DNA of 61,027 bases, filler included, from Chloroflexota bacterium (GTDB lineage Bacteria; Chloroflexota; Chloroflexia; QHBQ01), in NCBI GenBank assembly GCA_043754535.1. It is 5 parts of 4 records of this genome, joined end to end, with 100 filler letters (N's around TTAATTAATTAA, not from the genome) between each part and the next. Parts side by side here need not be neighbours in the genome. Positions count along the whole stretch, not along the records: positions 20,345 to 39,933 come from JAYUUN010000093.1; 4 more parts are not named here. One strand, 5' to 3'. The stretch's first letter is position 1, and each line of letters opens with the position of its first letter. The position numbers and the translations under genes are program-made. The notes beneath the pieces were generated by a model. The model was not told the origin of the DNA and did not search any database. It saw only the letters and a program-made list of their open reading frames with translations. Below, in pieces: positions 1 through 27,236 of the stretch.

Positions 1-85
1 GTGCAACTGTGGGTACAGCTAGAGGAGGATTGGTTTGGTCTTCTCACCACTGAGGTGAACGAGGCCGGTTACTTGCGACTTAGCC

Positions 86-114
86 ATTATACGACATCAG
101 CTTCTCACTGTCAA
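86..114 (-). promoter_or_regulatory. sigma70-type promoter (P2 of a tandem pair) firing out of the window
   Basis: Minus strand TTGACA-17nt-TATAAT, perfect consensus. Confidence 0.8.
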
Positions 115-215
115 GGGCTTTTGGCAACTTTAGCGGTAATTTGCTTCTGTTAGCTTTTTCGCCCTGAACACCACTTACCTCGCGGCAGTTGTGGCGGTCA
201 TTGCTGACAAAGCAG

Positions 216-244
216 AGTATACGACAACACAGCGTAGATGTCAA
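216..244 (-). promoter_or_regulatory. sigma70-type promoter (P1 of a tandem pair)
   Basis: Minus strand TTGACA-17nt-TATACT. Confidence 0.75.
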
Positions 245-284
245 GCGGATTCGCCGATTTAGGCACCTCCGTTCGAGGATTAGT

Positions 285-1190: not shown

Positions 1191-1270
1191 TATCCCCTCC
1201 ATCTCTATATTGGTGTCAGTTGTTGCTTGCATTGTAGCATATGCGCTAATACTATGCTATAATCTGCGCC

Positions 1271-2923: not shown

Positions 2924-2935
2924 AGCGCACGTACG

Positions 2936-2966
2936 AAAAAGGGCCACCAGCCGCAGCCAGTAGCCC
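2936..2966 (-). terminator. rho-independent terminator of cbs
   Basis: Minus strand GGGCTACTGG...CTGGTGGCCC hairpin followed by TTTTT. Confidence 0.6.
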
Positions 2967-2981
2967 CGATCATCTTGCAAG

Positions 2982-4421: not shown

Positions 4422-4614
4422 CTGCTTTGTTCTCCTCCGGCCACCCCACTGTGGTTGCTGTACCATTAGCCTCGTTCATCGCTAAGTATAGGGAACTAGA
4501 GGTGGCAATGTCAATTAGCAGAGCCATTGTACAATCTTTCTTGTAAGTAACAGGTCGCGAGCCAGCTTGTGCGCTCAGCACGTTAGCCGCGCCAGCGCAG
4601 CTGTCGTTGGTTAC

Positions 4615-6261: not shown

Positions 6262-6509
6262 ATCAGTGCGTCCAGCGTCGTCTTGCCAACGTAGATCACC
6301 AGCAGCAGCACAAGCATCGCCGCCCACCACACCCCCCAGAAGGGTGAGAGCAGGCTGCGCTCGTTATCGGGCAGGGGACCATTTAGTAGCCACCAGATAC
6401 CATGCGGGATCGCATAGACGATTGCCGCCACCAACGATCCCAGCACCAGCCGAGTGAAGCAGCCAAGATAGACATTGCGCCGCTTCGGTCGTACCTGCTT
6501 CTGTTGCAT
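6258..6509 (-). CDS. small two-TM membrane protein
   Basis: 83-aa ORF with two hydrophobic stretches, tightly packed between its neighbours. Confidence 0.65.
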   Translation of the reverse strand: MQQKQVRPKRRNVYLGCFTRLVLGSLVAAIVYAIPHGIWWLLNGPLPDNERSLLSPFWGVWWAAMLVLLLVIYVGKTTLDALI

Positions 6510-6515
6510 CCCCGC

Positions 6516-7697
6516 TCACCCCCCCGCAATCTTCGCCAGTGTTGTGCAGAAGCGGTCAAGCTCTGCCTCTGTGTTGTAGTAATGGACGCTGGCCCGCAGC
6601 AACTTGTCCAGCCCGCGTGTATCCATGTCCAGCCGGGCCGACCCTGCGTAGGAGACCCAGACGTTGATCTGCTGCTCCCACAGGGCCGCTCGGATCGCTT
6701 CCGGCTCGCGCCCTGCGACAGTAAAGGTGACGATCCCGCAGCGATCTACGCCCAGGTCGCGCCCTGTGACCGCCGCTAGCGTCGCCAACTGCGCCCGCAG
6801 GTAGTCAGCTAGCAGCATCACCCGCTCCTGGATGCTGTCCAGCCCCCAACTCAGGGCGTAGTCAATCGCCACCCCCAGGCCGATCTTGCCCGCGAAGTTC
6901 AGCTCATAGCTCTCGAAGCGGCTGGCGGCAGGATTCAGGCTGTAGCTGCTAGCCGATAGCCACTCCGCCCCACCTGTGTCCATCATTGCAGGCTCCAACT
7001 GCTCGGCTATTGCGCGACGCACGTAGAGCAAGCCGGTGCTGCGCGGCCCGCGTAGGTACTTGCGCCCGGTCGCGGCCAGGAAGTCGCAGCCAATCTCTTC
7101 CACGGACACTGGCATCTGCCCTACCGACTGGCAGGCATCCAGCAGGTAAAGTACACCCGCCTCCTTCGCCACTTGCCCAATCTCGGCAGCGGGGTTGACC
7201 AGGCCGCTGTTGGTCGCCACCTGGGTGATGGCAATCAGCTTCACCCGCTCGTCTAGCATCTGGCGCAGGGCAGCGGGCGAAGTCTGGCCCTGCTCATCGT
7301 TGGCGATCACTTCTACCAATGCGCCCGTGCGTTGGCTCACCTGCAAGATAGCCATGTAGTTGCTGACATATTCAGCAGTCGAAACCAGGATGCGGTCGCC
7401 AGCCTTGAAGGGGATGGCGTAGAAGGCAGCACCCCAGGCCCGACTCGCACCGTCGCTGAAGGCGATCTCGTCGCGCGCACAACCCAGCAAAGTAGCAGCA
7501 GCGTCGTAGAAGTGGGCTAGCTGATCAGCCGCTCTGTGTTCGGCCTCGTAGCCACCGATCTCGGCTTCGCGGCGCAGGTGGCCGAACACTGCATCCAGCA
7601 CCGGGTTGGGCTGCAAAGAAGCGCCCGCGTTGTTCAGGTGGATTAGCTGCTCCACCGCTGGCGTGTCCCGCCGCGCTCGCTCCAGGTCAATCGTCAC
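6516..7697 (-). CDS. aminotransferase class V PLP enzyme (cysteine desulfurase/EgtE-like)
   Basis: HLNNAGAS, LDACQSVG, TGRKYLRGP (PLP Lys), RASVHYYN; GTG start at 7697 (the ORF-track extension overlaps the divergent gene). Confidence 0.85.
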   Translation of the reverse strand: MTIDLERARRDTPAVEQLIHLNNAGASLQPNPVLDAVFGHLRREAEIGGYEAEHRAADQLAHFYDAAATLLGCARDEIAFSDGASRAWGAAFYAIPFKAGDRILVSTAEYVSNYMAILQVSQRTGALVEVIANDEQGQTSPAALRQMLDERVKLIAITQVATNSGLVNPAAEIGQVAKEAGVLYLLDACQSVGQMPVSVEEIGCDFLAATGRKYLRGPRSTGLLYVRRAIAEQLEPAMMDTGGAEWLSASSYSLNPAASRFESYELNFAGKIGLGVAIDYALSWGLDSIQERVMLLADYLRAQLATLAAVTGRDLGVDRCGIVTFTVAGREPEAIRAALWEQQINVWVSYAGSARLDMDTRGLDKLLRASVHYYNTEAELDRFCTTLAKIAGG

Positions 7698-7917
7698 CTC
7701 AATTACCCCTTGCTTGCTGTTTAGTTGCAACCAAATTATAGCACAACCAGCTAGCTGTGGCCTTACCCAACTCGCCATCAACCCGCCAGCTAGCTGCCAG
7801 TTAGTAACGAAGTGGCATTTTAGGGCTGAAGTGTCAAGAACTTTACACTTTTTCGGCTGGGATGTGCTATAATGCCTTTGCCTTGCAGCAACCTTGATCG
7901 TGGAGCGTGACTTTCGC

Positions 7918-8754
7918 ATGGGGGAACCACAGTTCGTCGTAATACCAATGGCTATTGGTGATGCCTTCAGCGACTCTTTCGCTCGTGGCAACGCAGGCTT
8001 CCTGATCCTCGCTGGGGATGAGCAGATCATGCTCGATTGCCCCCCACTGGTTGGCGCACTGCTAAAGCAGGCAAGCCACCTGAGTGGCGTGCCTGCCACC
8101 CTGGCTGGCATCGGCCACGTCCTCGTCACTCATCTGCACGACGACCATAGCGGCGGCCTCTCTGAGTACACTATTGTCCACGCCACCGCCCGTAATCCGC
8201 TCTCTGCCAGCCAACGCCGCTACTCTGCCGCAGAGCAGGCAGCAGCCCTACGCTACGGTCGCCCAACCCTGCACGGCCATCCACACCTGGTGAAACACTT
8301 CTGGCAGCAGAAGCTAAAGATTGCCCTGGGTCAGTCCTATACCAACGAAGGGGACTTCCAGGAGAACCAGGTCGGCGACTGGTTCTACACCCAGTCGCTC
8401 ACCCCCGGCCACCGCTTCCCCCTGGGCGACAGCGGCGTGGAGGTGGAGGCTCGCTATACCGTCCACCACATCCCCTGCGCCGCCTACAAGTTGTTCTTCA
8501 ACGGACACAGCGTCGGCTTCAGTGGCGACGCACACTTCGAGCCAGCCCTGATCGACTGGCTAGCCAACTGCGACCTAGTGTTCCACGAAAGCACCTACGG
8601 CCCCGGCCACACCGACCTTGACCAACTGCGCGAGTACGTAATGGCCCGCCCCGCCCTCGCCGCTAAGCTCTATGTCTACCACTACCCTAGCACCTATGAC
8701 CTCAAACGCTGCCCACTCAAGTTCGCCCAGGTTGGCAAGCCCCACTCGGTTTAG
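7918..8754 (+). CDS. MBL-fold metallo-hydrolase (RNase Z-like)
   Basis: THLHDDH (HxHxDH), TVHH, FSGD, FHE, GHT, YHY motifs. Confidence 0.85.
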   Translation: MGEPQFVVIPMAIGDAFSDSFARGNAGFLILAGDEQIMLDCPPLVGALLKQASHLSGVPATLAGIGHVLVTHLHDDHSGGLSEYTIVHATARNPLSASQRRYSAAEQAAALRYGRPTLHGHPHLVKHFWQQKLKIALGQSYTNEGDFQENQVGDWFYTQSLTPGHRFPLGDSGVEVEARYTVHHIPCAAYKLFFNGHSVGFSGDAHFEPALIDWLANCDLVFHESTYGPGHTDLDQLREYVMARPALAAKLYVYHYPSTYDLKRCPLKFAQVGKPHSV

Positions 8755-10079
8755 CCAACCCGCCTCTAGCAGAGCGGTTTGGCTGCTGCTTGCCGCCTAC
8801 CTCGCTATCTTCTTTGCCGCTTCCTGGTACAAGTACAGCCACTACGGTTATGGCTACGACCAGGTGGATTTTGAGCAGGCGGTCTGGGCGACGACGCAGG
8901 GGCGACCCTTCTTCGACTCGCGCTTCAACTTCACCGACTCGGTATTTGGCATGGACTTCATGCCCGCCCTCGGCCTGTTCGTCCCCTTCTACGCCCTCGT
9001 TCCTTCAGCCCTGACGATGGCCTGGGGCGAGACGGTGGTGATCGCCCTCGGCGCACTGCCGGTCTACTGGCTGGCGCGGGCAGTGATCGGCGGTCGCTGG
9101 GCAGGGTTGACCTTCGCCAGCCTCTACCTGCTCTATCCCACCATCCAGTACGTCAACCTGTTCGCCTTCAACCTGAGGCCGCTAGGGGTGACAGCGATCC
9201 TATTCGCCCTCTGGTTTTTGCACCAGCGGCGGTGGCTGCCTTTCGTCCTATGCGCTGCCTTCGCGCTGCTGGCCCGCACCGATGTCGCCCTCACTGTTGC
9301 CGCCCTCGGCCTCTACGCCCTGCTCACTACCAAGCCGCTGCGGGCAGGCTTGCGCTTCGGCCTGCCAGTGCTGCTTGGTGGCTTGCTCTACTTCTTCGTC
9401 TCTCTCTACCTGGTCGTTCCCGCCTTCACTTCCCCCTGCACCAACAGTGCAGCGACTAATCAGGTGCAGACTGCCCCCGCCCAGGCTGAAGATACTAGCG
9501 ACAGCCTGCAATCCAGCGAGCCAGGGGGGAATGGCTGTGGTGGGCGGAGCAACTTCCTGATCGGCTACTACAGTCACCTGGGCAACAGCAGCAGCTTTGG
9601 TGGGGTGATCAGCTACGTGGCTACGCACCCAGTCGAGGTGGCGAAGCTGGTCTTCACCGCGCAGAAACTCAAGTACCTGTTTTGGCTGCTGCTACCTGTC
9701 CTCTTTCTGCCGCTGCTACGCCCAGTTAGCTGGCTGCTGCTGGCCCCCACTCTCGCCCTCAACCTGCTGACCAATCGCCGTTCGCAACTGGACTACCACA
9801 GCCACTACCAGATGCTGCTCATCCCCGGCTTGCTGGTTGGAGCGATCTACGGCTTTGCCCGGCTACAAGGCTGGCTGCGCGCGATCAACCTGCCTCCAGG
9901 CACAGGAGAGGAGCAGGCCCACCCGCCCGCCGCTCGCCCGCTCGTGCTAGGGAGCATCGTATTGCTTGCGCTAGCGATCAACTTTGCCAGCGGCAATCCT
10001 GTCTACCACGCCTTCCGCTTCGGTGAGAGTGAAGCGCGGGTAGCGGCAGCCAATGCGCTAGTCGCCAGCGTGCCGCGTG
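8672..10079 (+). CDS. DUF2079-like integral membrane protein (GT-C-like), truncated at contig end
   Basis: YDQVDFEQAVW, LYLLYPTIQ, DYHSHY; many TM segments; start uncertain; runs into the N linker. Confidence 0.7.
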
Positions 10080-13214: not shown

Positions 13215-13661
13215 CTACCTGCCGATCACCCGGTAGCCACTGGGGGTGCTGCTCTTTACCACGGTAGCGCGGGGGGTGTGGGCGCGCTCATGTTCGTCGT
13301 ACTCATAGAACTCGGCCTCTACGTAAGCACCGCTGGCGGTTGCCTGGTCGGTAGGCACAGTAATGCGAACTGGCTGATGTAGGCGTTGGGGCTGGGGGCG
13401 CACGCTAAACTGCGGCTGGCCGCGCTCGAAGGAGCCGTCGCCCAGTGCCTCACGGTGGCTAGCCCAAACCAGGACGATCATCAGCATAGGGGTGGCAGCC
13501 AGCCCGCCGACCAGGATGCCGACCAACACGGCCCAGGTGTCGCTGGTGATCCGCAAGGCAGCTACAGTAGTAACCGTGATCGCACACAATGCGCCGATCA
13601 CCGCAAAGTATCTTTTCATCTCTGGTTCGCTCTCTGTACTAGACTGCGCGTAGTTTGCCAC
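13215..13661 (-). CDS. hypothetical two-TM membrane protein with disordered tail
   Basis: Two hydrophobic helices then a P/Q/E-rich tail; overlaps the FtsK-like stop; start may be ATG 13619. Confidence 0.7.
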   Translation of the reverse strand: MANYAQSSTESEPEMKRYFAVIGALCAITVTTVAALRITSDTWAVLVGILVGGLAATPMLMIVLVWASHREALGDGSFERGQPQFSVRPQPQRLHQPVRITVPTDQATASGAYVEAEFYEYDEHERAHTPRATVVKSSTPSGYRVIGR

Positions 13662-14847
13662 GGGCTACCGGGCGGTGGATGCGGGTAACTGCCACTGGTT
13701 GCTCCTGCTCATCATCATCAAAGTCATCTTGCACCGAAGCTCGCTTGCGTGCGCTGAGGTCGCGGGGGCGCATCTCCTCGCGGGGGGCTTGCTTGTCACG
13801 GGCAGCATCACGCTGCACCTTAGCCAGCAGGCCGACTAGCTGGCGGCACTCGCTGTCGCTGATCATGGCGGCCTGCATCCGCACCAACTCCTTGCCGATC
13901 ACTACCAGTGCGTCACCCAGGCCGAGCAGCTTCTCTGCGCCGCTGCCGTTCGTGCCTACCATCTGGCGGGCCTCCTCTGCGTCACCAGCCCGCAGCACGA
14001 CGCGGGTGCTGAAGTTGCTCCGTAGGCTATCGCCCATGATCGCATCGTCTGGGCGGCGGTTGGCGAGCAGCACGTGGATGCCCACGTCTGGCCCACGCTG
14101 GCAGAGGACGGTTAGTGCGTCGCGGAACTTCTGGCCGTGCTTGCTGAGGAGCGGCTGCGCGTCGTCAATGGCAACCACGATGGTGGGGCTGCTGATGTTC
14201 TGCTCCTCGCGGTACTCAATGTGGCGGGCCAGCCAGCGCAGGTGATGCACTGCGTCCAGAGCGTCGGTGATGATCGGGCGTAGGAGGTGGGGTAGACCTT
14301 CAAGCTGACGTAGGGCGTTGGACTTGCCGTAGCTGTCGATCAACAGCAGTTGCACCTCCTCTGGCGCGTTCGCCAGGGCCAGGCTGCTAATCATCGAGCG
14401 CAGCAGTTGCGACTTGCCACCGCTCGCCTGCCCAATCAGCAGCACGTTGCCAACCCCCTCACCGTCCAGGCGCAGGAGCAGGGGACTACCGTCGGTGTCC
14501 AGCCCTAGCAGGCAGGTGTTACCCGGTATCTCGCTCTGGTCGCCAAACTCGCCGCTGTCGAGCCGCTGGTAGAGGGGGAGCAGGCGCACGGTCGAGGGGT
14601 CGGGGCGCGGCACCTCTAGCACGGGTTGGCCGTTCTTGAGGGTCAGGCGGCAGGAGGCAACCCCCATCTCGCTGGCGATCTTCTCGGTCAGGCTGTTGAC
14701 GCGGCTGCGCTTGACCTGCGGCGGCAGGGTCAGGTCGAAGGTAAAGAGGCGAGGCGAAACCACGCCGCCATCCACCCGCGCATCAATGCCGTGCTGGTGC
14801 AGGACGTATTCGATTGTGTTGGCACTTTGTTCGAGTATCTGTTTCAT
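13639..14847 (-). CDS. FtsK/SpoIIIE-domain protein (alpha + ATPase, no TM or gamma domain)
   Basis: FtsK-alpha-like N-terminus ending LEVPRP, LGLDTDG, Walker A GQASGGKS, Walker B VAIDD, GIHVLLANRRP, GAEKLLGLGD. Confidence 0.85.
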   Translation of the reverse strand: MKQILEQSANTIEYVLHQHGIDARVDGGVVSPRLFTFDLTLPPQVKRSRVNSLTEKIASEMGVASCRLTLKNGQPVLEVPRPDPSTVRLLPLYQRLDSGEFGDQSEIPGNTCLLGLDTDGSPLLLRLDGEGVGNVLLIGQASGGKSQLLRSMISSLALANAPEEVQLLLIDSYGKSNALRQLEGLPHLLRPIITDALDAVHHLRWLARHIEYREEQNISSPTIVVAIDDAQPLLSKHGQKFRDALTVLCQRGPDVGIHVLLANRRPDDAIMGDSLRSNFSTRVVLRAGDAEEARQMVGTNGSGAEKLLGLGDALVVIGKELVRMQAAMISDSECRQLVGLLAKVQRDAARDKQAPREEMRPRDLSARKRASVQDDFDDDEQEQPVAVTRIHRPVARGKLRAV

Positions 14848-15083: not shown

Positions 15084-16538
15084 ATGGCTATTATGGCAAA
15101 CCTACGTTCCTCACTCGCCATCGCGGCAGGCAAGGGTAGCGCATGGCTAACCCGACGGATCGGGCGTGGCGGCACTGCCCTCCCCGGCCTGGTCGCCAGC
15201 ACGCTCGACCCACACCTGATCGGCAAGCTAACCCGCAGCTTGCCACGTGGAGCGGCGGTCGTCACTGGCACCAACGGCAAGACGACAACCACGCGGATGA
15301 TCAGCACGATCCTGCAACACGCAGAGTGGCGCGTACTGCACAACCGCAGCGGCAGCAATCTCATCCGTGGGCTGGCAGCAACCCTGGTACAGGCGGCTAG
15401 TGTGGGCGGCAAGCTGCCTGCCGACTTCGCCCTCTTTGAGGTGGATGAAGCGGCGGTGCCAGCGGCGATGCTTGAGGTGCAGCCGCGCCTGCTGCTGTTC
15501 AACAACTTGTTCCGCGACCAGCTAGACCGCTATGGCGAGGTGGAGAACGTGCGCCGCAAGTGGGTGGACGCGCTCAAGCAGGTGCCGGTTGGCACTACAG
15601 TGCTGCTCAATGCCGACGACCCAGGCATCGCTAGCCTGGGCCTCGGTCTGGACTCGGCCACCGTGCTGTACTTCGGCCTCGACGATGAGGAGGGGGCGCA
15701 CAATATGGGCGCGCTGCAACACCAGGCCGATAGCCTGGAGTGTCCTGTCTGCCGCACTCACCTTGCCTACGAAGCTGTCTACACCGCGCACGTAGGCCGC
15801 TACCACTGCCCCAACTGTGGCTTCAAGCGACCAACCCCTCACTTCCGCGCTCGCCGCGTACTGCTGCACGGCACCCAGGGCAGCACCGTGCTGCTAAGTA
15901 CCCCCGACGGTGAGGGTGAGCTTGCGGTGCTGGTACCGGGGCTGTACAATGTCTACAACGCCCTGGCTGCCACTGCCGCCAGTATAACCCTGGGCTTGAC
16001 CCTGGCGCAGGTGCAGGCGGGGCTGGCCGAGTTCAAGGCGGCCTTTGGGCGGATTGAACGGATCGCAATCGGCGATAAATCGCTGCTGATGGCCCTGGTC
16101 AAGAACCCGGTCGGCTTCAACGAGGTGATGCGGATGCTGCTTGCCAGCGAGGATCGTCTGCACCTGCTGATCCTGATCAACGACCTCTTTGCCGACGGGC
16201 GCGACGTTAGCTGGCTGTGGGATGTGGACTTCGAGTTGCTGACCAAAGCGCACGAGCTTGCCGCCGTCACCACTGGGGGTATTCGCGCCGAGGAGATGGC
16301 CCTGCGCCTCAAGTACGCGGGCGTTGACCCAGCCCTGATCAGCATCGTTGCGGGTGATGCACCGACCGGGCGGGGCAAGACACACCTCTATGACACTGCG
16401 CTGGACAAGGCCCTGGCAAGCACACCAACTGGCACGACCCTCTATGTGCTGCCCACCTACACCGCAATGCTGGGTTTGCGCGAGGTGTTGGCTGAACGTG
16501 GGCTGGTCAAGCAGTTCTGGGAGGACTTATGCAGCTAA
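15084..16538 (+). CDS. murT: lipid II isoglutaminyl synthase subunit MurT (Mur ligase + DUF1727)
   Basis: GTNGKTTT, EVDE, NLFRDQLDRYGE, CxxC..CxxC zinc finger, KNPVG, DGRDVSWLWD, PTYTAML. Confidence 0.92.
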   Translation: MAIMANLRSSLAIAAGKGSAWLTRRIGRGGTALPGLVASTLDPHLIGKLTRSLPRGAAVVTGTNGKTTTTRMISTILQHAEWRVLHNRSGSNLIRGLAATLVQAASVGGKLPADFALFEVDEAAVPAAMLEVQPRLLLFNNLFRDQLDRYGEVENVRRKWVDALKQVPVGTTVLLNADDPGIASLGLGLDSATVLYFGLDDEEGAHNMGALQHQADSLECPVCRTHLAYEAVYTAHVGRYHCPNCGFKRPTPHFRARRVLLHGTQGSTVLLSTPDGEGELAVLVPGLYNVYNALAATAASITLGLTLAQVQAGLAEFKAAFGRIERIAIGDKSLLMALVKNPVGFNEVMRMLLASEDRLHLLILINDLFADGRDVSWLWDVDFELLTKAHELAAVTTGGIRAEEMALRLKYAGVDPALISIVAGDAPTGRGKTHLYDTALDKALASTPTGTTLYVLPTYTAMLGLREVLAERGLVKQFWEDLCS

Positions 16539-17263
16539 ACATTGCGTTTCTCTATGCAGACCTGATGAACATCTACGGCGACCGGGGCAACATCATCACC
16601 CTTCAGCAACGCTGCCAGTGGCGAGGCATCGCGGTGACAGTGGACAGCCCCACAGTTGGCGACCCACTGGATACTGAGAAGTACGACCTCTACTTCTTTG
16701 GCGGCGGTCAGGATCAGCAGCAGGTGGCGGTCTCTGCCGACTTGCAGCGGGGCGGCAAGGGTGAGCGGCTGGCGGTGGCTCTGCGTGACGGGGCAGCCTG
16801 CCTCTCGGTCTGCGGCGGCTACCAGTTGCTCGGCCACTACTACCAGCCGCACCAGGGCGCGCAGCTACCAGGGATCGGCTACTTCAATGCGACTTCCCGC
16901 GCCGAGGCTGACCGCTACATTGGCAATGTGGTGGTTGAGAGCGAACTGTTCGGCACCCTGGTTGGCTTCGAGAACCACTCGGCGCGCACCTACTTGCAAG
17001 ACGAGACGATCAAGCCGCTGGGCCGCGTGGTCGTCGGTAAGGGCAACAACGGGCGAGATCGGTTGGAGGGAGCCGTCTACCAAAACAGCATCGGCTGCTA
17101 CCTGCATGGCTCCGTGCTACCCAAGAACCCCGCGCTGGCCGACTGGCTGATCGAGCGCGCTCTACACCGCCGCTATGGGGCCGTGCAGCTAGAGCCGCTG
17201 GCCGACAGCGTAGAGCGGCTGGCCCACGATGCTGCTATAATCAGGGCGAAGCAGACGAAGTAA
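16529..17263 (+). CDS. gatD: glutamine amidotransferase GatD (CobQ-like)
   Basis: MNIYGDRGN, GGGQD, VCGGYQ, GFENH, YLHGSVLPKNP; overlaps murT. Confidence 0.92.
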   Translation: MQLNIAFLYADLMNIYGDRGNIITLQQRCQWRGIAVTVDSPTVGDPLDTEKYDLYFFGGGQDQQQVAVSADLQRGGKGERLAVALRDGAACLSVCGGYQLLGHYYQPHQGAQLPGIGYFNATSRAEADRYIGNVVVESELFGTLVGFENHSARTYLQDETIKPLGRVVVGKGNNGRDRLEGAVYQNSIGCYLHGSVLPKNPALADWLIERALHRRYGAVQLEPLADSVERLAHDAAIIRAKQTK

Positions 17264-18790: not shown

Positions 18791-20244
18791 CTACTTTGTG
18801 GTATTGGGCTTGTCTGGCAGGTTAAAGTAGTAGGAGATGATGTTGCCGACCGCTGGTACGGCGTAGCTGGAGCCTTCGATAACTGCTACGCTGTTGTTCT
18901 CAGTCGTCAGCTTACGGTCGCCTTCGATGAAGACAGTAACGGCGATTTGCGGGTTGTCGTAGGGGGCGAAGGCGGTGAACCAGGCGTGGCTCTTGCGTAC
19001 TCCATTTGCGTCTGCTTCGCCATACTCCGCCGTGCCGGTTTTGCCCGCGAGAGCAATGCTCTTGTAGTTGATCCGCCAGGCTGTGCCATAGGCGGAGAGC
19101 GAGTTGCCTGTCACCGCCTCGCGCATCCCCTGTCGCACCAGCGCAAGGTTGCCTGCGTTGACTGGCAATTGACGGATCACCTCTGGCTTGAAGTCCTTGA
19201 CCACCGTCTGGCTGTCGCCGCTGCGTAGCTGGTAGACGAGGGTGGGGCGATAGAGGATACCGCCGTTGGCGATAGCAGCGGTGGCATTGTTCATCTGCAA
19301 AGGGGTGGCGGCCATGTAGCCCTGCCCGATGGAGCTAATCAGTGTGTCGCCTAGCGACCAGAAGTCGCCGGGGTAAGTGCGCTCCTTCCATTCCTGCGTG
19401 GGGACGAGGCCAGAACTCTCCTCTGGTAGCTCGATCCCTGTCTGCGCGCCGAGGCCAAAGGCGCGGGCGTAGCTGCTGATCCGCTGGATGCCCAGGCCAC
19501 GGAAGAACTGCAACTGGCTAGAGCCGGGCGGTAGCCAGCGCGTGTGGTTGCCTGCGTCGTCGGTCTGGTCTGGCCCACCAAGCTGGTAGAAGAACACGTC
19601 ACTTGACTGGCTGAGGGCCTGCACGATGTTGATGTTGCCGAAGCCCCGCGTGTTCCAGTCGCGGTAGGTGTTGAACTTGCTATTGTCTTGGGTGTAAGGC
19701 ACCCGGATCGCGGGGGGGCAGAAGAACTGGTCGCTGGGGCTAACTACCTGCTCTTGCAGACCGGCAGCGGCCATAATGATCTTGAAGGTAGAGCCAGGAG
19801 GCTGTGGGTTGATCACCCGGTTGATCAGCGGGCTGGCTAGGTCGTTCCGCAGCTCGTCGAACCGCCGCTGCGAGATACCAGTGGCAAAGAGGTTGTTGTC
19901 GTAGTCTGGTAGGCTGACCATCGCCAGCACTGCCCCGGTTCGCACATCCTGCACTACCGCCGCACCCGTTCGCACGCCCGCTGCTGTCAGTTGCTCTTGC
20001 AGGTACTGGCGCACCTTCTGCTGCAACTTAGTGTCAATGGTTAGATAGACATTGTTGCCGTCCACCGCTGCCGTTTCAGTCAAGACCTGGGTGATGTGGC
20101 CGCTGCTGTCTACCACCACCTGCCTGCTCCCCTTGCGCCCGCGCAACTGCGCCTCCAGGGCTAGTTCCAGGCCGTCCTTGCCAGCCTTGTCGTCGTTCTC
20201 ATAGGTAGGAACGTAGTTGGCGTTGAGGTCGTCAGGGTTGATCG
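18791..20244 (-). CDS. mrdA: penicillin-binding protein 2, 5'-truncated at contig end
   Basis: GKDGLE..LRG, PGSTFK (SxxK), SSD (SxD), GKTGTAE, HAWF; frame stays open up to the linker. Confidence 0.88.
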
Positions 20245-20344
20245 NNNNNNNNNNNNNNNNNNNNNNNNNNNNNNNNNNNNNNNNNNNNTTAATTAATTAA
20301 NNNNNNNNNNNNNNNNNNNNNNNNNNNNNNNNNNNNNNNNNNNN
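20245..20344. other. artificial contig linker
   Basis: N-TTAATTAATTAA-N. Confidence 0.98.
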
Positions 20345-20478
20345 TTGTCCACGTAGTTGGTGCTGACCTGGCGGCCCGCCCAGCGGCAGTCGATCACGGC
20401 AAGGCCGACCTGAAGGCCAAGATGCCCGACATGGATATGAGCCGCTAACCACCGACCACGTAGAACAACTACCAGTCA

Positions 20479-20512
20479 ACTGGCCCCCGCTTCTCCAGCG
20501 GGGGCCAGTTTT
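20479..20512 (+). terminator. terminator after a truncated upstream ORF
   Basis: ACTGGCCCC(C)GCT..AGCGGGGCCAGT followed by TTT. Confidence 0.65.
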
Positions 20513-20530: not shown

Positions 20531-20559
20531 TTGACGAAAACCGCCTGGCTGCCTATAAT
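20531..20559 (+). promoter_or_regulatory. sigma70 promoter of the ECF operon
   Basis: TTGACG-17-TATAAT. Confidence 0.7.
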
Positions 20560-20620
20560 GGGGGTAGGCCAGCACGTTTGGCAACGAAGCGGCGCGACAG
20601 AGAGCGACGGAGGTAGGGCA

Positions 20621-21202
20621 ATGGATGCAGCCGTACTGGAACAAGCGAAGCAGGGCGATGCCGACGCATTCGCTGTGATCTACGAGCAGTATCATCTGGC
20701 AATCCACAATTACGCCTATCGGCTGCTGGGCAACCAGGAGCAGGCCGACGATGTAACCCAGGAGAGCTTCATTCGCGCCTACCAACACCTGCGCGAGCTA
20801 CGCGACGAGGCGGGGCTGCAAGCCTGGCTCTACCGCATCGCCTCCAACATCTGCATGGACAGCCTGCGCCGCCGCCGCATTATCTCCTGGCTGCCGCTGC
20901 GTCATGATAATGACGACGACGAGCAGCACGGTAGCCGCAATGAGCAGGATGCCCAGGTGCCACCTACCCCTGATTTCAGCATCCAGTACGCCGAGTCCGA
21001 TCTTGTCCACAAGGCTCTCGCTCTGCTACCCCCCCCGCTAGCCACCTGCCTGGTGCTACGTACCGTCGAAGGCTTCTCCTGCGAGGAGATCGCCGACATC
21101 CTCAAGATACCACGTGGCACCGTCTGGAGTCGGCTGGCCCGCGCCCGCGAACTGTTCGTTGCTAGCTACAACCAGGTGAGCCACGAACTGGGAGGCAGAT
21201 AG
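20621..21202 (+). CDS. ECF RNA polymerase sigma factor
   Basis: GDADAF, ADDVTQESFIRAY, WLYRIASN, region 4 EEIADILKIPRGTVWSRLARAR; GGAGG RBS. Confidence 0.93.
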   Translation: MDAAVLEQAKQGDADAFAVIYEQYHLAIHNYAYRLLGNQEQADDVTQESFIRAYQHLRELRDEAGLQAWLYRIASNICMDSLRRRRIISWLPLRHDNDDDEQHGSRNEQDAQVPPTPDFSIQYAESDLVHKALALLPPPLATCLVLRTVEGFSCEEIADILKIPRGTVWSRLARARELFVASYNQVSHELGGR

Positions 21203-21204
21203 AG

Positions 21205-24200
21205 TTGGGTTGTTCCGGCTACAAAGACCTCCTCTCTCGCTACATAGATAATGAACTAAGTAAGCGTGAGCGCGAAGAACTACTTGCACACCTGCAACAT
21301 TGTAGCAAGTGCAGCCACGCCCTGGCAAAGTACCGGCAAGTGGAGAGCCTGCTGGCCCAACCTGGCCGCGAGGAAACGAGGCCGAACCCAGCGGTGCGCG
21401 ACCGCGTGTTGGAGGCAATCCGTCCCGCCAGCCAGCAGCCTCCCCGCCCCCTGCGCCTCCCCGCCCACCGGGGCCGCCTGCGCTGGGTGGGACTGCTTGC
21501 CCTGACCAGCGCAACCTTCATCTTCACCGTACTGCTGGCCCAAAGCCAGACGGGGTTTCTCACCAACTTGCTGACCAGCCCGCCCAAGCCGAGCAGCACA
21601 CCCGACTTTGGTGCTACTGCGCTGGTCAGCAAGGCAGCTACTGCTACCTCGGTCGCTGCCCTACCGCCCGCCCATGTGGTCAGCGTGCAGCCAACCACCA
21701 GCCCGCTGGCTCTCGACCAGCCGATTGTTGCCCGCTTCGACGTGGCGATGATGCAGACCTCAGTGGAGGAAGCCTGGCAGATCGCGCCGCCTGTCCCTGG
21801 TAGCTTCCTCTGGACAGCCGACAACGAGCTAACTTTCCAGCCCTACAGCCTCGGCTATCTGCCCGGCATCACCTATACCCTGACGATCAGCAACACCGCG
21901 CATGGCAGCACCAACGGCGCACTGATCACCCCGGTCGTCTACAGTTGGATGACACGGCCAGCACCCCGCCTGCTTAGCCACGAGCCAGCCGAGTTCGCCA
22001 GCAGCACGCCGCTGACCGCCCCACTTACCCTGCGCTTTGATCGCTCGATGCAGCACGCTGCTGTGCAGGCCGCCTTCAGCCTCAGCCCCAGCCAGCAGCT
22101 TGAGTGGACATGGGCGGCAGACAGCCAGAGTGCGACAGTGCAGCCGACCACACCCCTCAATCCCAACCTGGCCTACGTGGCTACCCTCGGCCATGCTGCC
22201 CTCGACAGCAGTGGGGTTAGCATTGGCCGCGACCAGGCCTGGCGGTTCAGCACAGCAAGCCTGGCCCAGCTGACGTTTGCTGCGACCACCCTGGCGGGCA
22301 ACATAGTACTACCCCTCGCCTATAGCCCGGCTGCGAGCTACAGCCTCACCTACACCCTCACCCGCCCAACCCTGACTGCCACCAACTTGCGCTTCGACCT
22401 CTACCATGTGATCCCCACTGCGGTCGCCTTTGGCAGCCGCGCCGATCAGCGCACCCTGCTTGCCAGCTTCGCCGCCCCCGCCGAGGGCAGTAGCTCCTTG
22501 ACCGCCATCCTCGCCTTCGACCTGCCAGCAGTGGGTGACTATCTCCTGTTGCCCCAAATCGAGGGGGACGACCTGTTCAACCGCACGGTGCAGGGCTGCC
22601 TGCTGATCGTCGGGGCAGAACAGGTGCGGGTGGAACAGGTTGGCGCACAGGTGATCCTCTGGGCTACTAGTGGGGGGGCAGTGGTAGCAGGGCTGGCCCA
22701 GTTCTACGACGCGCAAGGGGTGCTGCTGGACAGCGGCCCAACCGATGCAACTGGTAGCTACCTGACCACCCTTGCTCCCGGCGTGCGGCCCGCCTTTGCT
22801 GCCCTGCGAGTAGGAGACCAGATACGCGCAGTGCTGCCGCTCGACGGCCAGCCTGCCCCCGCCAGTACCGCTCGCCTCTATGCCTACAGCGACCAGCGCA
22901 GCTACCAGCATGGGGAGAGCAAGATCAACTTCAAGGCGATCCTTTTTCTCGGTGACAGCGCAGGCTATAAACCTGCTGTGGGCGAGACCACGATCAACGT
23001 CGCCCTAGAAGATGCGGCGGGCGCACAGATTGCCAGCACTGCCTTGCGGCCCGACGACTTTGGCGCGGTCAGCGGCTCCTTTCCACTGTTGACGGGCCTG
23101 CTGGGGGGCTGGTACAGCCTGAAGGCGACCGCCCTCGACCAACAGTACAGCCAACCCCTCTACGTGCAGGGCGGCTTCGGCTGGCAGAGCGCAGAGCAGC
23201 TAGCGAATGCCGCTCCGCTACCCCCCCCCCGCAGCGACGAGCCTGCCAACAACAGCCGCTTCACGGCAGCAGCCCGCAGCTACCAGGTGGGCGAGACCGC
23301 CGCCCTCACCCTCACCCTACCAACGGCACCGACCACCCCAATGGCGGGGCTGCTGCTGCTGCGCCGTGATGGGATGATCAGCCGCCAGCCAGTGGTGATC
23401 ACGGCGGCGGAGAGTAGTTTCAGCTTGCCGCTGCCCACTGCTGCCCAGCCACTGGCGGTAGCAGAACTACTGCTGGCGGATGGCAGCGGCAGCCTGCGAG
23501 TGCCAGTGCAGGTAGGGGCGCGCAACCCATTGCTAGACGTGCGGCTGGGCCTGCCCGCCAACATCCATCCTGGCACGCCAACTACCCTCACCCTCGCCCT
23601 GAGTAATGGCGGCCAGCCGAAGCGGGGCAGCGTCAGCCTGGCGATCAGCAGCCAGCCTGCCGCTGACAGCCTACCCTCTTACTTCTACCCCCCCTTCAGC
23701 CTGGGGCTGGTGGGACAGAGCGAGCCGGGTAGCGTCGCTTACTGGAACGCCAACCTGGTGGTCAGCGAGAGTGGTGTGCTGACTGTCCCCTTCGTGCTAC
23801 CCAACGACGCGGCAGGGGGCTGGTGGCTAACGGCGCGGGCTATTGGGGACGACGGGGCAGTAGGCGAGACGGTTAGCCGCCTGACAGCGGTCGAGCCGCT
23901 CAGCCTGCGCCCGCTCACCCCCACCTATTTTGTGCAGGGGGATCGTGCTACCGTTGGCGTGCGGCTGCACAATAGCACCGGGCTGCCGCTCAAGGGCCGC
24001 GTCACTCTTAGTTCGGACGGCCTCACCTTCCTCAAACTCAATACCCTCCCCGCCGCTCAGGACGTGCTGATCGCTCCCTTCAGCGACCGCGATGTACAGT
24101 GGAGGGTCGAGATGCGGCGCAGCGGCAATGTTGACCTAGTGTTCGACTTTGCGGCTAACAGCGACGGTAGCCGCGAGTTGGGCCTGCTGCTGGATAGCTC

Positions 24201-26022
24201 CCGCGAGTTGCGCGTCCTCGTGCGCCCAGTCAGCCCACCCATCGTTAGCGCACTCGCGGGCGTGGCCGAGGAGGGGCAGCCGCTCACCTTCACCATCGCT
24301 AGCAATCTCGCCAGCGATCTCAGTCGGGTGGAGCTAGAAGTCGCGCCGTCACTAGCCGCCTTCCTGCTTGGCAGCATAGAGGCGATGACGGACGCGCCAG
24401 CCACGGGGGTGGAGCAGATCAGCAGCCAGGCGGCCAGCGTCGCTAGCCTCGATCTCGCCCTGCGCCAGTTGCGCTACAGTAGGCTGACCCTTGCCCCCGC
24501 CAGTGCCATGCTAGCCCGCACCTTGCCGCTAGTCTACGCCAGCCAGCAGGCAGATGGTAGCTGGCTGCTGGCTGGTAAGTCGGACTTCAGCACGACAGCC
24601 CTCACCCTGCACAACCTTGCGCGGCTGCGTGACAGCGGTGTGCCACCCGACAACAGGGTTAGCAGCCACGCGGTTGCCTACCTGCGGTCGCAACTACCCA
24701 CCTTGCAGGGAGAAGACCTGGCCTACGCTTACTACGTGCTGGCTCTCTACGGGGCCGCCGACCTTGATGAGGTGCGCCCGCTGCTCGCCGCCCCGCTCGA
24801 CTCCTTCGGGCAGGCCGCCCTGATCCTTGCCCTCGACAAGCTGGGCGACCGCTCTGCTGCCCGCCTGCTCGCTCGCCTGCTCAGTAGTCAGGCGATGCTC
24901 GACGCACAGGGGGCGCACTGGCTGGCCGCCTCTGCCCCGGCCAATCTTACCAGCGCAACCGTGCTGCTTGCCCTCAGTGGCAGCCTCAGCGATGACCCGA
25001 ATATTGGGCGAGGGGTACGCTGGCTGGCAGCCCAGCGGGTGGCTGGGGGCTGGGGTTCGCCACGTAGCGACGCAGCCGCCCTCGAAGCTCTTAGCAACTA
25101 TGCAGCGGCGACCAACGACGGCCAGATCATCAGCCTGGCTAATCGACCTGCCGAGGGCGATGGCCCTGCCGTTGGTGGATCGCGCCCAGCCAACCAGGCA
25201 CGCAGCTACCGGGCCTACCTGAATGGCACGCTGCTCAACGAGGCGGATGGCAAGCTGACCTCCAGCCCGCTCGACGACCGTACCCGCCTCAAGTTGCCCC
25301 TCGATCAGCTACACAGCGGCGCGAACGTCCTTCGCCTGGCAACGCAGGAAGGGGTGCCGCTCTACTATGCCCTGATCCTGGTCGCTTACCCAGCGATCAA
25401 CGCCAGCTTTGGCGCGAGTGACGAGCAGGCAGGCCAGTTCGCAGGCAACCCCCGCACCGTCTCGGCCAGCGAAGGGAGCGACCTGCGCCTGGAACGCAGC
25501 TACAGCCGCCTGGCTGGTAGTGGCCCGCTCAAGCCGGGTGATCTCGTGCGTGTAGCCCTGACGGTGACGGCTGGCATCCCCCTGAGCGGGCTGATGGTCA
25601 ACGACTACCTGCCAGCGGGCCTGACCCTCTCTGGCCCAGAGTGGCCTGCGCCCACTCCCCGGCGGCAGGCCGGTGCTTTTGGCGAGGACGAGGTGGCTAG
25701 TGACCAGCCCGCCACTACGCCGCAGGGGTTTGGCGCAGAGCAAGGGCAGGTTAGCTACTATCTGCCGGAGGTGGAGGCAGGGCCGGGGGTCAGCTACCGC
25801 TTCACCTACCTGGCCCAGGCCAGCAGCTATGGAATCTTCATCGCCCCCCCCGCCACCGTTTCGGGACGAATGGGCAGCACAGCACACACGGCCAGCGACG
25901 TGATCACCATCGAACAGGAGGATGCGGCGAAGTTATGGAGAAGTTCATCATCGAAGGCGGCCACCACCTCAGCGGCACGATCCGCCCGGCGGGGAACAAG
26001 AACGCAGCCCTACCCTTGCTAG
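21205..26022 (+). CDS. zinc-finger anti-sigma factor fused to Ig-like (Big_5) domains and alpha-2-macroglobulin
   Basis: LSRYIDNEL..HLQHCSKC (HxxxCxxC), one TM, two Big_5-like repeats, MG2-like SDQRSYQHGE, A2M AYWNANL..PTYFVQGD, TED-like QQADGSW, C-terminal GDLVRV..DYLPAGL. Confidence 0.85.
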   Translation: MGCSGYKDLLSRYIDNELSKREREELLAHLQHCSKCSHALAKYRQVESLLAQPGREETRPNPAVRDRVLEAIRPASQQPPRPLRLPAHRGRLRWVGLLALTSATFIFTVLLAQSQTGFLTNLLTSPPKPSSTPDFGATALVSKAATATSVAALPPAHVVSVQPTTSPLALDQPIVARFDVAMMQTSVEEAWQIAPPVPGSFLWTADNELTFQPYSLGYLPGITYTLTISNTAHGSTNGALITPVVYSWMTRPAPRLLSHEPAEFASSTPLTAPLTLRFDRSMQHAAVQAAFSLSPSQQLEWTWAADSQSATVQPTTPLNPNLAYVATLGHAALDSSGVSIGRDQAWRFSTASLAQLTFAATTLAGNIVLPLAYSPAASYSLTYTLTRPTLTATNLRFDLYHVIPTAVAFGSRADQRTLLASFAAPAEGSSSLTAILAFDLPAVGDYLLLPQIEGDDLFNRTVQGCLLIVGAEQVRVEQVGAQVILWATSGGAVVAGLAQFYDAQGVLLDSGPTDATGSYLTTLAPGVRPAFAALRVGDQIRAVLPLDGQPAPASTARLYAYSDQRSYQHGESKINFKAILFLGDSAGYKPAVGETTINVALEDAAGAQIASTALRPDDFGAVSGSFPLLTGLLGGWYSLKATALDQQYSQPLYVQGGFGWQSAEQLANAAPLPPPRSDEPANNSRFTAAARSYQVGETAALTLTLPTAPTTPMAGLLLLRRDGMISRQPVVITAAESSFSLPLPTAAQPLAVAELLLADGSGSLRVPVQVGARNPLLDVRLGLPANIHPGTPTTLTLALSNGGQPKRGSVSLAISSQPAADSLPSYFYPPFSLGLVGQSEPGSVAYWNANLVVSESGVLTVPFVLPNDAAGGWWLTARAIGDDGAVGETVSRLTAVEPLSLRPLTPTYFVQGDRATVGVRLHNSTGLPLKGRVTLSSDGLTFLKLNTLPAAQDVLIAPFSDRDVQWRVEMRRSGNVDLVFDFAANSDGSRELGLLLDSSRELRVLVRPVSPPIVSALAGVAEEGQPLTFTIASNLASDLSRVELEVAPSLAAFLLGSIEAMTDAPATGVEQISSQAASVASLDLALRQLRYSRLTLAPASAMLARTLPLVYASQQADGSWLLAGKSDFSTTALTLHNLARLRDSGVPPDNRVSSHAVAYLRSQLPTLQGEDLAYAYYVLALYGAADLDEVRPLLAAPLDSFGQAALILALDKLGDRSAARLLARLLSSQAMLDAQGAHWLAASAPANLTSATVLLALSGSLSDDPNIGRGVRWLAAQRVAGGWGSPRSDAAALEALSNYAAATNDGQIISLANRPAEGDGPAVGGSRPANQARSYRAYLNGTLLNEADGKLTSSPLDDRTRLKLPLDQLHSGANVLRLATQEGVPLYYALILVAYPAINASFGASDEQAGQFAGNPRTVSASEGSDLRLERSYSRLAGSGPLKPGDLVRVALTVTAGIPLSGLMVNDYLPAGLTLSGPEWPAPTPRRQAGAFGEDEVASDQPATTPQGFGAEQGQVSYYLPEVEAGPGVSYRFTYLAQASSYGIFIAPPATVSGRMGSTAHTASDVITIEQEDAAKLWRSSSSKAATTSAARSARRGTRTQPYPC

Positions 26023-27236
26023 CCGCTTGCCTCCTCAGCGAGGAGACGATTACCTTCCACAATATGCCACAGATCGGTGACGTGCATACGATGCTGGCAA
26101 TCCTCGACGATCTCGGCGTGACGGTCAACACCGACCGCTGGCGAGGCGAAGGGGTGGTCAGCCTCACCGCTGCCGAAATCCGCAAGAGCGAGCCAGACCC
26201 CACTCTAGCCCGCAAGATACGCGCTTCCCTGGTGCTGATGGGGCCGATGCTAGCCCGCCTGGGGCAGGTGAAGATGGGCCACCCAGGAGGCGACCCGATT
26301 GGCAGCAGGCCAGTGGATACCCACTTTCAGGCACTCGGCGCGCTCGGTGCAGCCTGGGAGGTGGGCCGCACCACGTACACGCTCAGTGCAGCCCAGGGCT
26401 TGCATGGAGCCGACATCTTCCTGGTGCAGGCCAGCGTGACTGGCACAGAAAACGCGATCATGGCGGCAGTGCTGGCGGCTGGGCGTACTACTATCCTCAA
26501 TGCAGCCAGCGAACCGCACGTACAGGAACTCTGTCACTTCCTCAACAAGCTGGGGGCGCAAATCACGGGTGTGGGCAGCAACCAGCTAACCATTGACGGT
26601 GTGGCCCGCCTGAGTGGCGGCGAGCATACCATCGAGAGCGACTACATCGAGGTGGGCAGCTACATCGGGCTGGCGGCGATCACGGGCAGCGAACTGCTGA
26701 TCAAGGATGCGGTGCCACAGCATATGCGGATGACGCGGCTGATGTTCGAGCGGTTGGGGGTTCGTAGCGAGGTGCGCGGCGGCGATCTGTTTGTGCCTGG
26801 CGGTCAGCAGTTGAGGGTCAGCTACGACGTGCATGGTGGGGTGGCCTACATCGACGACGCACCCTGGCCTGGCTTCCCCGCCGACGTGATGAGCATCGCG
26901 CTGACGGTGGCGACCCAAGCTGAGGGGACGATCTTGATCTTCGAGAAGATGTTTGATGCCCGCCTGTTCTTTGTGGACAAGCTGAACAGCATGGGCGCAC
27001 GGATCATCCTCTGCGACCCCCATCGGGCGGTGGTGATCGGCCCAGCCCGCCTGCACGGGGAGGAGCTATCCAGCCCCGACATCCGTGCCGGCATGGCCTT
27101 GCTGCTGGCTGCCCTCTCAGCCGAGGGGACGAGTACGATCTTCAACGTGCAGCAGATCGACCGGGGCTACGAGCGGATCGAGGAGCGGCTGCAAGCCCTG
27201 GGTGCGCGGATCGAACGCCAGCCGGTCGCGGACTAG
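25935..27236 (+). CDS. murA: UDP-N-acetylglucosamine 1-carboxyvinyltransferase
   Basis: GNKNAALP, RAS, PGGDPIGSRP, SVTGTEN, PWPGFPAD, DIRAG, IDRGYE. Confidence 0.95.
   Translation: MEKFIIEGGHHLSGTIRPAGNKNAALPLLAACLLSEETITFHNMPQIGDVHTMLAILDDLGVTVNTDRWRGEGVVSLTAAEIRKSEPDPTLARKIRASLVLMGPMLARLGQVKMGHPGGDPIGSRPVDTHFQALGALGAAWEVGRTTYTLSAAQGLHGADIFLVQASVTGTENAIMAAVLAAGRTTILNAASEPHVQELCHFLNKLGAQITGVGSNQLTIDGVARLSGGEHTIESDYIEVGSYIGLAAITGSELLIKDAVPQHMRMTRLMFERLGVRSEVRGGDLFVPGGQQLRVSYDVHGGVAYIDDAPWPGFPADVMSIALTVATQAEGTILIFEKMFDARLFFVDKLNSMGARIILCDPHRAVVIGPARLHGEELSSPDIRAGMALLLAALSAEGTSTIFNVQQIDRGYERIEERLQALGARIERQPVAD

Follow-up and report, generated by a model that had tools for sequence, protein, structure and literature searches.

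Pairs of a sigma factor of the extracytoplasmic function (ECF) type and an anti-sigma factor are among the main signalling systems of bacteria, and for most of them the signal has not been identified. Bacterial alpha-2-macroglobulins (A2Ms) are regarded as protecting the envelope from proteases, and a part in signalling has not, to our knowledge, been ascribed to them. We analyse here a locus in which the two are joined, found in a 61,027-nt stretch of DNA (the window, made of contigs of one genome strung together). The source is a Chloroflexota bacterium (assembly GCA_043754535.1; 3.87 Mb, 88.9% complete). The locus is a three-gene operon in which an ECF sigma factor gene is followed by a gene for a single-pass anti-sigma factor with a thioester-less A2M ectodomain and then by murA, and it is conserved across one order of Chloroflexia.

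The closest described regulators are anti-sigma factors released through regulated proteolysis, such as RsiW, RseA and RsiV. RsiW is a single-pass zf-HC2 anti-sigma factor released by regulated intramembrane proteolysis. RsiV is itself a lysozyme receptor, with site-1 cleavage by signal peptidase, and in SigP/RsiP the beta-lactam sensor is reportedly the penicillin-binding protein PbpP, with site-1 cleavage also said to be by signal peptidase. The locus resembles SigW/RsiW of Bacillus subtilis in that an ECF sigma gene is directly followed by that of a zf-HC2 anti-sigma factor with one transmembrane (TM) helix, a site-2 protease is encoded in the genome, and the best NCBIfam matches of the sigma factor are SigW models. 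It differs in its ectodomain (a 1480-residue A2M body in place of RsiW's small domain), in the lack of an identified PrsW in the genome, and in the housekeeping-type promoter of the operon. Likeness to SigV/RsiV and SigP/RsiP is conceptual: the outer part of the anti-sigma factor could recognise an attacking enzyme and thereby license cleavage. The sensor domains are unrelated, however.

With Type II A2Ms (MagD of Pseudomonas aeruginosa; YfaS) the fusion shares a full A2M body without the CXEQ motif and an association with the cytoplasmic membrane, and one member of the fusion family carries the source label 'YfaS (alpha-2-macroglobulin family)'. Unlike these proteins, it is not part of a mag operon. 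Neither pbpC nor magABCDEF partners flank the gene, whose neighbours are the ECF sigma gene and murA. It is anchored by its own TM helix and anti-sigma domain, whereas MagD is held by MagB. Its bait-position loop is short, and it is recognised as an A2M by fold but not by a sequence search of the PDB. Type I A2Ms (ECAM/YfhM of Escherichia coli; Salmonella) provide the best structural matches (5a42, 4u48) and are likewise anchored at the N-terminus. Their genes, too, are linked to a peptidoglycan-synthesis gene, the adjacent pbpC according to PMC5764988, as the fusion gene is to murA. In contrast to Type I proteins, the fusion lacks the thioester Cys, is only 14% identical to the matches in structural alignment, has a TM and anti-sigma anchor instead of a lipoprotein anchor, and is partnered with cytoplasmic MurA rather than PBP1c.

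The operon and the parts of the fusion protein are laid out as follows (window coordinates):

20246..20344, no strand: scaffold gap, N runs with the TTAATTAATTAA linker
20480..20512, plus strand: GC-rich hairpin and then a T run, a terminator-like end of the upstream gene (read from the sequence)
20531..20559, plus strand: consensus sigma-70-type promoter, TTGACG-17 nt-TATAAT, 61 nt 5' of the sigma ATG
20621..21202, plus strand: ECF sigma factor, 193 aa, sigma-2 and sigma-4 only (Pfam/NCBIfam, homolog starts)
21205..26022, plus strand: anti-sigma/A2M fusion, 1605 aa, TTG start with GGGAGG 8 nt upstream
21205..21429, plus strand: cytoplasmic class-I/ZAS-type anti-sigma domain, residues 1-75, with C3, H29, C33 and C36 invariant
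21484..21543, plus strand: single TM helix, residues about 94-113, with an Arg-rich stretch ahead of it (Kyte-Doolittle)
21667..22254, plus strand: two Big_5 Ig-like domains, residues about 155-350 (Pfam)
22270..23604, plus strand: MG beta-sandwich domains, including the MG2 and A2M_BRD matches, residues 356-800 (Pfam, fold model)
23680..23739, plus strand: bait-position loop, residues about 826-845, with low model confidence at 831-840
23737..24009, plus strand: A2M (MG7) domain, residues 845-935 (Pfam)
24352..25113, plus strand: all-helical TED-like domain, residues about 1050-1303 (fold model)
24406-24417, plus strand: thioester-site equivalent, G1068-V-E-Q1071, without Cys (alignment)
25483..25863, plus strand: bacterial MG10 domain, residues 1427-1553 (Pfam)
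25935..27236, plus strand: murA, UDP-N-acetylglucosamine 1-carboxyvinyltransferase, overlapping the last 88 nt of the fusion open reading frame (ORF) (TIGR01072)

A first-pass annotation had described an ECF sigma factor ending 2 nt before a 1605-aa ORF with an HxxxCxxC zinc finger, one TM helix and two Big_5-like domains, and in these respects it was right: the sigma ORF (20531..21202) stops 2 nt before the TTG at 21205 that opens the fusion ORF (21205..26022). Pfam places zf-HC2 at residues 3-36 (39.7 bits against a curated cut-off of 22.2) and Big_5 in two stretches (1.1e-18, above cut-off). One strongly hydrophobic helix is predicted at about residues 94-112. The Kyte-Doolittle peak is 2.04 at residue 94, and the sole other window above 1.6 falls in the MG10 domain. 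A Pro/Ser/Thr-rich linker lies between the helix and the Big_5 domains.

The annotation's further claim of A2M motifs (MG, TED-like and C-terminal domains) is confirmed by Pfam together with a fold model that has the overall A2M/C3 fold. Pfam finds A2M at residues 845-935 (32.9 bits, cut-off 21) and bMG10 at 1427-1553 (28.8, cut-off 26.2), but MG2 at 557-648 (27.2 versus 32.8) and A2M_BRD at 689-798 (20.3 versus 22.7) fall below their cut-offs, and the ORF gave no Pfam match for a TED domain. An AlphaFold2 model of residues 356-1555 (27-row alignment, mean pLDDT 77.1, pTM 0.50) contains runs of beta-sandwiches, a domain made entirely of helices (about 1050-1303) and, towards the C-terminus, further beta domains. 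In a Foldseek search of the PDB it is most similar to 5a42, the native ECAM of E. coli (E 1.6e-43, TMq 0.50), and to 4u48, the A2M of Salmonella (E 2.9e-43, TMq 0.49). Protease-activated ECAM scores lower against the model (4ziq, TMq 0.32; 4rtd, TMq 0.30). A sequence-profile search of PDB chains found no A2M and only weak Ig-domain matches; the A2M assignment thus rests on Pfam and the fold.

The three-gene unit recurs well beyond this genome. Gene order was compared by tblastn at 29 loci from 29 genomes, and in all 29 the sigma gene lies immediately 5' of the fusion, so that the pairing the annotation proposed to look for beside ECF genes elsewhere is indeed present. murA follows immediately in 26 of the 29, which is every locus with downstream DNA (26/26), the contig ending inside the fusion gene in the other three (L003, L047, L061). 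The wider surroundings vary (on the upstream side L002 has a Crp-like regulator and L004 a protein without a Pfam family; on the downstream side the window has a phosphate acyltransferase and L004 other genes), and the conserved unit is therefore exactly sigma, fusion and murA. The murA of the window is confirmed by its model (TIGR01072, 466.9 bits, cut-off 392.7) and is the sole murA found in its genome. In the window's family the sigma and anti-sigma genes are separated by 2-3 nt, and in L004 and L002 the murA ATG lies 1 nt after the fusion stop. The order's other two families have an intergenic spacer before murA, often with heptamer-repeat hairpins.

In many loci of those two families (L043, L044, L048, L035, L055 and L057) the spacer has tandem heptamers (e.g., GTGGTTA) followed by their reverse complement, which would form long hairpins. 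These could act in attenuation or termination, or could be small repeat elements. Before murA the window's own family lacks a spacer.

The distribution of the fusion was examined by genome-by-genome searches covering Chloroflexota and by searches of protein collections. An initial protein search gave 7 clusters with zf-HC2 and A2M domains among 33 matches, and when one genome of each species was scanned, four genuine loci were obtained, each of them in a metagenome-assembled genome of Chloroflexia/Chloroflexi. The other four of the eight loci in that scan (L005-L008, Bacteroidales and Acidobacteriaceae) match anti-sigma residues 3-45 only and were set aside as ordinary small anti-sigma factors. 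An even sample of 401 genomes of the phylum returned the full-length fusion in the window's own genome only; other genomes of the sample matched the A2M core or the Big_5 region alone, in frames of about 1740-2270 aa.

The nearest 41 genomes (40 of the same order, one of another) were scanned with a profile of the first 700 residues. All but one of the 40 genomes of the order have a match starting at the anti-sigma domain, which makes 39 (35 of 36 when four genomes flagged unpublished, G415, G407, G434 and G412, are excluded), and the single genome that lacks it (G422) is 71% complete. In 36 of these 39 the match extends to position 670-700 or so, in frames of 1493-1814 aa where the contig allows. 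There is one match per genome, except in G439, where it falls on two overlapping contig-end pieces. The genome of the other order, 51% complete, gave no match.

A HMMER search of 1.84 billion representatives returned, among the matches listed, at least 15 proteins (1495-1792 aa) aligned from residue 1 to about 700 in one stretch and at least 7 N-terminally cut members, the rest of the best 150 being Big_5-repeat proteins and unfused A2Ms. With a profile of the anti-sigma domain, among at most 8000 candidates, at least 59 longer proteins were found at E <= 1e-8, all of the fusion family, with zf-HC2 in 56 and MG2 in 55 of 59. Organisms named among the matches listed are Chloroflexia, Chloroflexi, Chloroflexota and Chloroheliales only, and fusions of separate origin may exist in other phyla. 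A word-based search with residues 1-130 recovered the closest family only (8 proteins); the order-wide family is seen by profile. The source names of the longer proteins are limited to 'Ig-like domain-containing', 'MG2 domain-containing', 'hypothetical' and 'YfaS'. As annotations say only 'Ig-like', 'MG2 domain-containing' or 'hypothetical', a regulatory role is hidden in the databases.

A metagenome-assembled genome with a scaffold gap at 20246-20344 invites the question of whether the fusion is an artefact, in which a small anti-sigma gene and an A2M gene of its own were wrongly joined in assembly or lost the stop codon that parted them. The first-pass annotation had raised this possibility, and it was not borne out. 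Single contigs from three runs of three independent studies span 20414/20436-27300 unbroken (10,879, 9,412 and 10,879 nt), with 14-19 substitutions and no gaps, and take in the sigma gene, the sigma/anti-sigma junction, the fusion and murA. A fourth run (X10) covers it by three pieces that leave small gaps (21394-21480 and 22357-22372), which prove nothing in themselves. One joint in one run does skip 388 nt (22594->22983), but it derives from a single half-depth contig and one of its sides is 20 letters long, where reliability guidance asks for 30. The frame of 1493-1814 aa is uninterrupted by internal stops across the order, in proteins down to 24-30% identity. Comparison with L001, an ortholog of 93% identity, gives a dN/dS of 0.166 for the whole protein, with 0.06 for the anti-sigma domain and 0.07-0.22 for segments of the ectodomain; the ectodomain, including the TED-like domain, is under purifying selection. 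Contiguous independent assemblies, an order-wide open frame and purifying selection refute the artefact, whose probability we consider negligible, and we are almost certain that the architecture (a sigma factor with an anti-sigma domain joined to an A2M body) is real.

The C-terminal end of the fusion merits separate mention. The last ~35 residues (window 25918-26022, after ...ITIEQED) have no counterpart in P0005-P0009, homologs of the same family with ~40% identity that end at ...KGQE/KGQQ. This tail overlaps murA in another frame and has dN 0.054 and dS 0 relative to L001. It is probably a stop-loss read-through extension past the ancestral stop.

The sigma gene itself begins 90 nt downstream of where the first-pass annotation had placed it. 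The TTG at 20531 is the -35 hexamer, and homologous sigma factors all begin MD(A/S)AV; the start is therefore ATG 20621. Pfam identifies Sigma70_r2 (2.4e-18), Sigma70_r4_2 (3e-13) and Sigma70_ECF, and TIGR02937 (sigma70-ECF) is matched at 96.7 bits (cut-off 42.9); the Pfam/NCBIfam scan listed no region 3 or region 1.1 match. The best NCBIfam equivalog matches are the SigW models at 127.8 bits, below the SigW cut-off of 209, so this is not a SigW equivalog, and all other equivalogs are also below cut-off. Sigma identity is 70-72% within the window's family and 55-56% to the order's other two families.

The complex of the sigma factor with anti-sigma residues 1-88 was modelled in three runs. Since similar complexes have been solved, the median score of 0.69 (best control 0.00) measures likeness to class I anti-sigma binding and is not proof for this pair; among complexes of solved structure 116 of 157 reach the score mark, and among mismatched pairs 2 of 215 do. 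Contact agreement was at least 90% and partner pLDDT at least 76, with modelled contacts on both sigma-2 (residues 12-54) and sigma-4 (129-183). The pairing proposed in the first-pass annotation passes its controls in this form, and the model supports the prediction that the N-terminal domain binds its sigma factor. Residues 1-50 of the anti-sigma factor hardly vary within the window's family, while the body of the protein is ~40% identical.

The domain carries a zinc-ligand motif (H29-x3-C33-x2-C36 plus C3) that is predicted to bind zinc, and these four residues are invariant in all 17 aligned representatives of the family. Such invariance also suits a cytoplasmic input, in which the zinc-bound Cys/His cluster would be a thiol-redox switch of the RsrA/RslA kind and the A2M a membrane-tethered protease inhibitor for which the anti-sigma domain serves as an anchor. 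NCBIfam gives a weak match to the mycothiol-system anti-sigma RsrA (33.2 bits, cut-off 62.5), and an N-terminal TM helix likewise anchors the canonical A2Ms that this genome encodes. Many anti-sigma factors with the ZAS motif are not redox sensors, however, as is textbook knowledge, and a thiol switch leaves unexplained why a 1480-residue fusion is kept in 39 of 40 genomes despite the presence of unfused, anchored A2Ms. We consider it quite improbable.

Rightward from the scaffold gap follow the 3' end of an upstream gene, the hairpin, the promoter and the sigma gene. A promoter of the form TTGAC-N17/18-TA(T/A)AAT lies 45-98 nt 5' of the sigma start in 9 of the 9 loci printed, and the same dyad is present in 8 of 8 loci of a motif scan from which the near-identical L001 was excluded. 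No second dyad common to the loci was found 5' of sigma by an exact-word count over 8 loci, which weak or degenerate motifs could escape; the top dyads 5' of murA are conserved coding sequence. The operon looks constitutively driven by the housekeeping sigma factor, judging from these motifs. As no ECF-type promoter was found at sigma or murA by this count, autoregulation and ECF control of murA are unsupported.

Contig C93, which carries the operon, opens at window 20345 (C91 makes up window 1-10079 only). DNA to the left of 20345 belongs to another contig; its adjacency to the operon, including that of a PBP2-type transpeptidase at 18791-20146, is thus not established. Four independent assemblies all break at about 20414-20465, just upstream of the operon, and a short contig (326-458 nt) covers 20345-20443/20465 at ~2x depth (29-48 versus 15-26). 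The sequence just 5' of the operon may thus be a repeat in two copies or a variable junction.

For the trigger, the cleavage cascade and the output of the system we infer a scheme from the anti-sigma factors described above. The zinc-finger domain (residues 1-75) would hold the sigma factor in the cytoplasm, with the 1480-residue A2M body outside the membrane on its Pro/Ser/Thr-rich tether. The ectodomain would be cut by proteases that reach the envelope, or after a conformational change, and the leftover stub would become a substrate of the site-2 protease. The freed anti-sigma domain would then be degraded, and the sigma factor would steer RNA polymerase to an envelope-related regulon. Allosteric signalling is unlikely because of the single helix and the long, flexible tether. 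The genome encodes a site-2 protease (Peptidase_M50, PF02163, 5.5e-51, 467-aa frame), which is weak support because the family is near-universal. By analogy, regulated proteolysis is the best supported of the modes of release considered. Proteolytic attack on the ectodomain, or its cleavage, may well be the trigger, although we put this somewhat short of probable.

What would cut the ectodomain is a further matter. The first-pass annotation proposed that the A2M cage may be repurposed as a surface sensor, for example of foreign proteases or envelope damage. The fusion and its pairing with an ECF sigma factor are borne out, while the evidence for sensing foreign proteases is mixed (no thioester, a short loop, a universal single-copy place beside the sole murA that suits envelope homeostasis no less than defence). 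In its strong form the idea is that a former protease trap now serves as a protease receptor coupled to transcription, the ECF sigma factor being freed when a foreign protease cuts the tethered cage or is captured by it. In favour of a body that is still a trap, it is under purifying selection and the model is nearest to the native, uncleaved conformation. According to PMC5764988, Type II bacterial A2Ms such as MagD lack the thioester, yet their bait is cut and the protease trapped.

Several findings weigh against a working trap or a proteolytic trigger. The Cys of the thioester (CXEQ, which defines Type I) is absent from the site in 17 of 17 family representatives and is replaced by G-V-E-Q in the window protein. 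The bait-position loop, which falls between the A2M_BRD and A2M matches and is bounded by conserved FYP and YW anchors, is 15 aa here and 2-70 aa among the representatives; it aligns to 2 aa in 10 of 17, in an alignment that is uncertain at 25% identity. Loops of 2 aa are found in all eight of the ~1500-aa forms, which gave no bMG10 match in Pfam, and in two of the five ~1750-aa forms. In some close relatives the loop is 30-70 aa long with PQDRGGL-type repeats, and in the fold model pLDDT is below 50 at residues 831-840. zf-HC2, Big_5 and MG2 are found in 17 of 17 representatives, but A2M in 8, bMG10 in 7 and A2M_BRD in 5 (E <= 1e-3). Two unfused A2Ms encoded in the same genome, both with N-terminal TM anchors (C90, a 2092-aa frame with CSEQ; C82, a 2195-aa frame without), could cover protease trapping. 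A PrsW-type site-1 protease (PF13367) was not found in the 88.9% complete genome, and no ECF-type promoter was found 5' of sigma or murA by the crude exact-word count. Finally, a universal single-copy block beside the sole murA looks as if it belonged to core envelope homeostasis rather than to a defence against proteases from outside. Taken with the points in its favour, we hold the receptor to be possible but doubtful.

Many of the same data suit a sensor of the envelope or of peptidoglycan status, in which the A2M fold, having lost its trap function, would be a large wall-spanning scaffold or a ligand-binding module that reports the integrity of the cell wall or the state of its precursors. 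Sigma release, still by proteolysis or unfolding, would tune wall synthesis together with the putatively co-transcribed murA. The missing thioester, the 2-aa loops and the patchy Pfam matches to A2M and bMG10 agree with this, as do the presence of the block in 39 of 40 genomes of the order with one anti-sigma-start match each (split over two pieces in G439), the invariable murA amid differing neighbours, its being the sole murA of the genome, and the pbpC linkage of Type I A2M genes. The Big_5 region is also weakly like the Ig domain of the L,D-transpeptidases LdtMt2/LppS (PDB profile search, E 1.6e-3 to 8.6e-3). No ligand- or wall-binding domain was identified in the protein, however; the whole A2M body, TED-like domain included, is under purifying selection; the fold best fits the native trap (TMq 0.50, versus 0.30-0.32 for the activated forms); and no ECF-type promoter was seen 5' of murA. 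We regard a wall sensor, too, as unlikely, if a serious candidate.

The nearest unfused A2M relatives have lipobox-like or TM N-termini; as these proteins are N-terminally anchored, the fusion merely swaps the short cytoplasmic end of the anchor for an anti-sigma domain.

Two other features of the window lie on a different contig from the operon. At 15084-17263 two overlapping genes encode a Mur ligase similar to MurT (484 aa) and an amidotransferase similar to GatD (244 aa). This pair resembles lipid II isoglutaminyl synthase but is below the NCBIfam equivalog cut-offs (315 versus 800 and 204 versus 400 bits). At 13639-14847 on the minus strand, a 402-aa ORF matches ATPases of the FtsK/EccC type in part (FtsK model, 2.4e-29, well short of the cut-off) and is much shorter than FtsK.

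The first-pass annotation knew of no described system with this architecture, and our literature searches found none either. A search of full texts on anti-sigma factors and macroglobulins, outside of which subscription papers lie, found nothing relevant. The main text of an ECF re-classification (PMC7826278) contains no macroglobulin, A2M, MG2, murA or Chloroflexi, and the available part of its supplement has no macroglobulin or A2M term. A survey of class I anti-sigma factors (PMC7406223) mentions Chloroflexi in its main text for abundance only. With the exception of the sigma start, the features listed by the first-pass annotation stand, and the conserved murA linkage and the housekeeping-type promoter can now be added to them. 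These results suggest that the ECF/anti-sigma pair is new in its sensor domain, of which we know no description, and in its conserved partner murA, and that the trio may sense attack on the cell envelope in a manner not described before.

Were the A2M body the sensor, protease attack or damage to the envelope would be relayed directly to transcription, and the operon would be a natural test case for reading out the conformational change of an A2M. The finding also sharpens the old hypothesis that bacterial A2Ms and peptidoglycan synthesis work together, with pbpC in proteobacteria and murA here. Should the body prove to be a protease receptor, then throughout a whole order of Chloroflexia a molecule resembling those of innate immunity would be wired directly to the expression of genes and to the step with which peptidoglycan synthesis begins.

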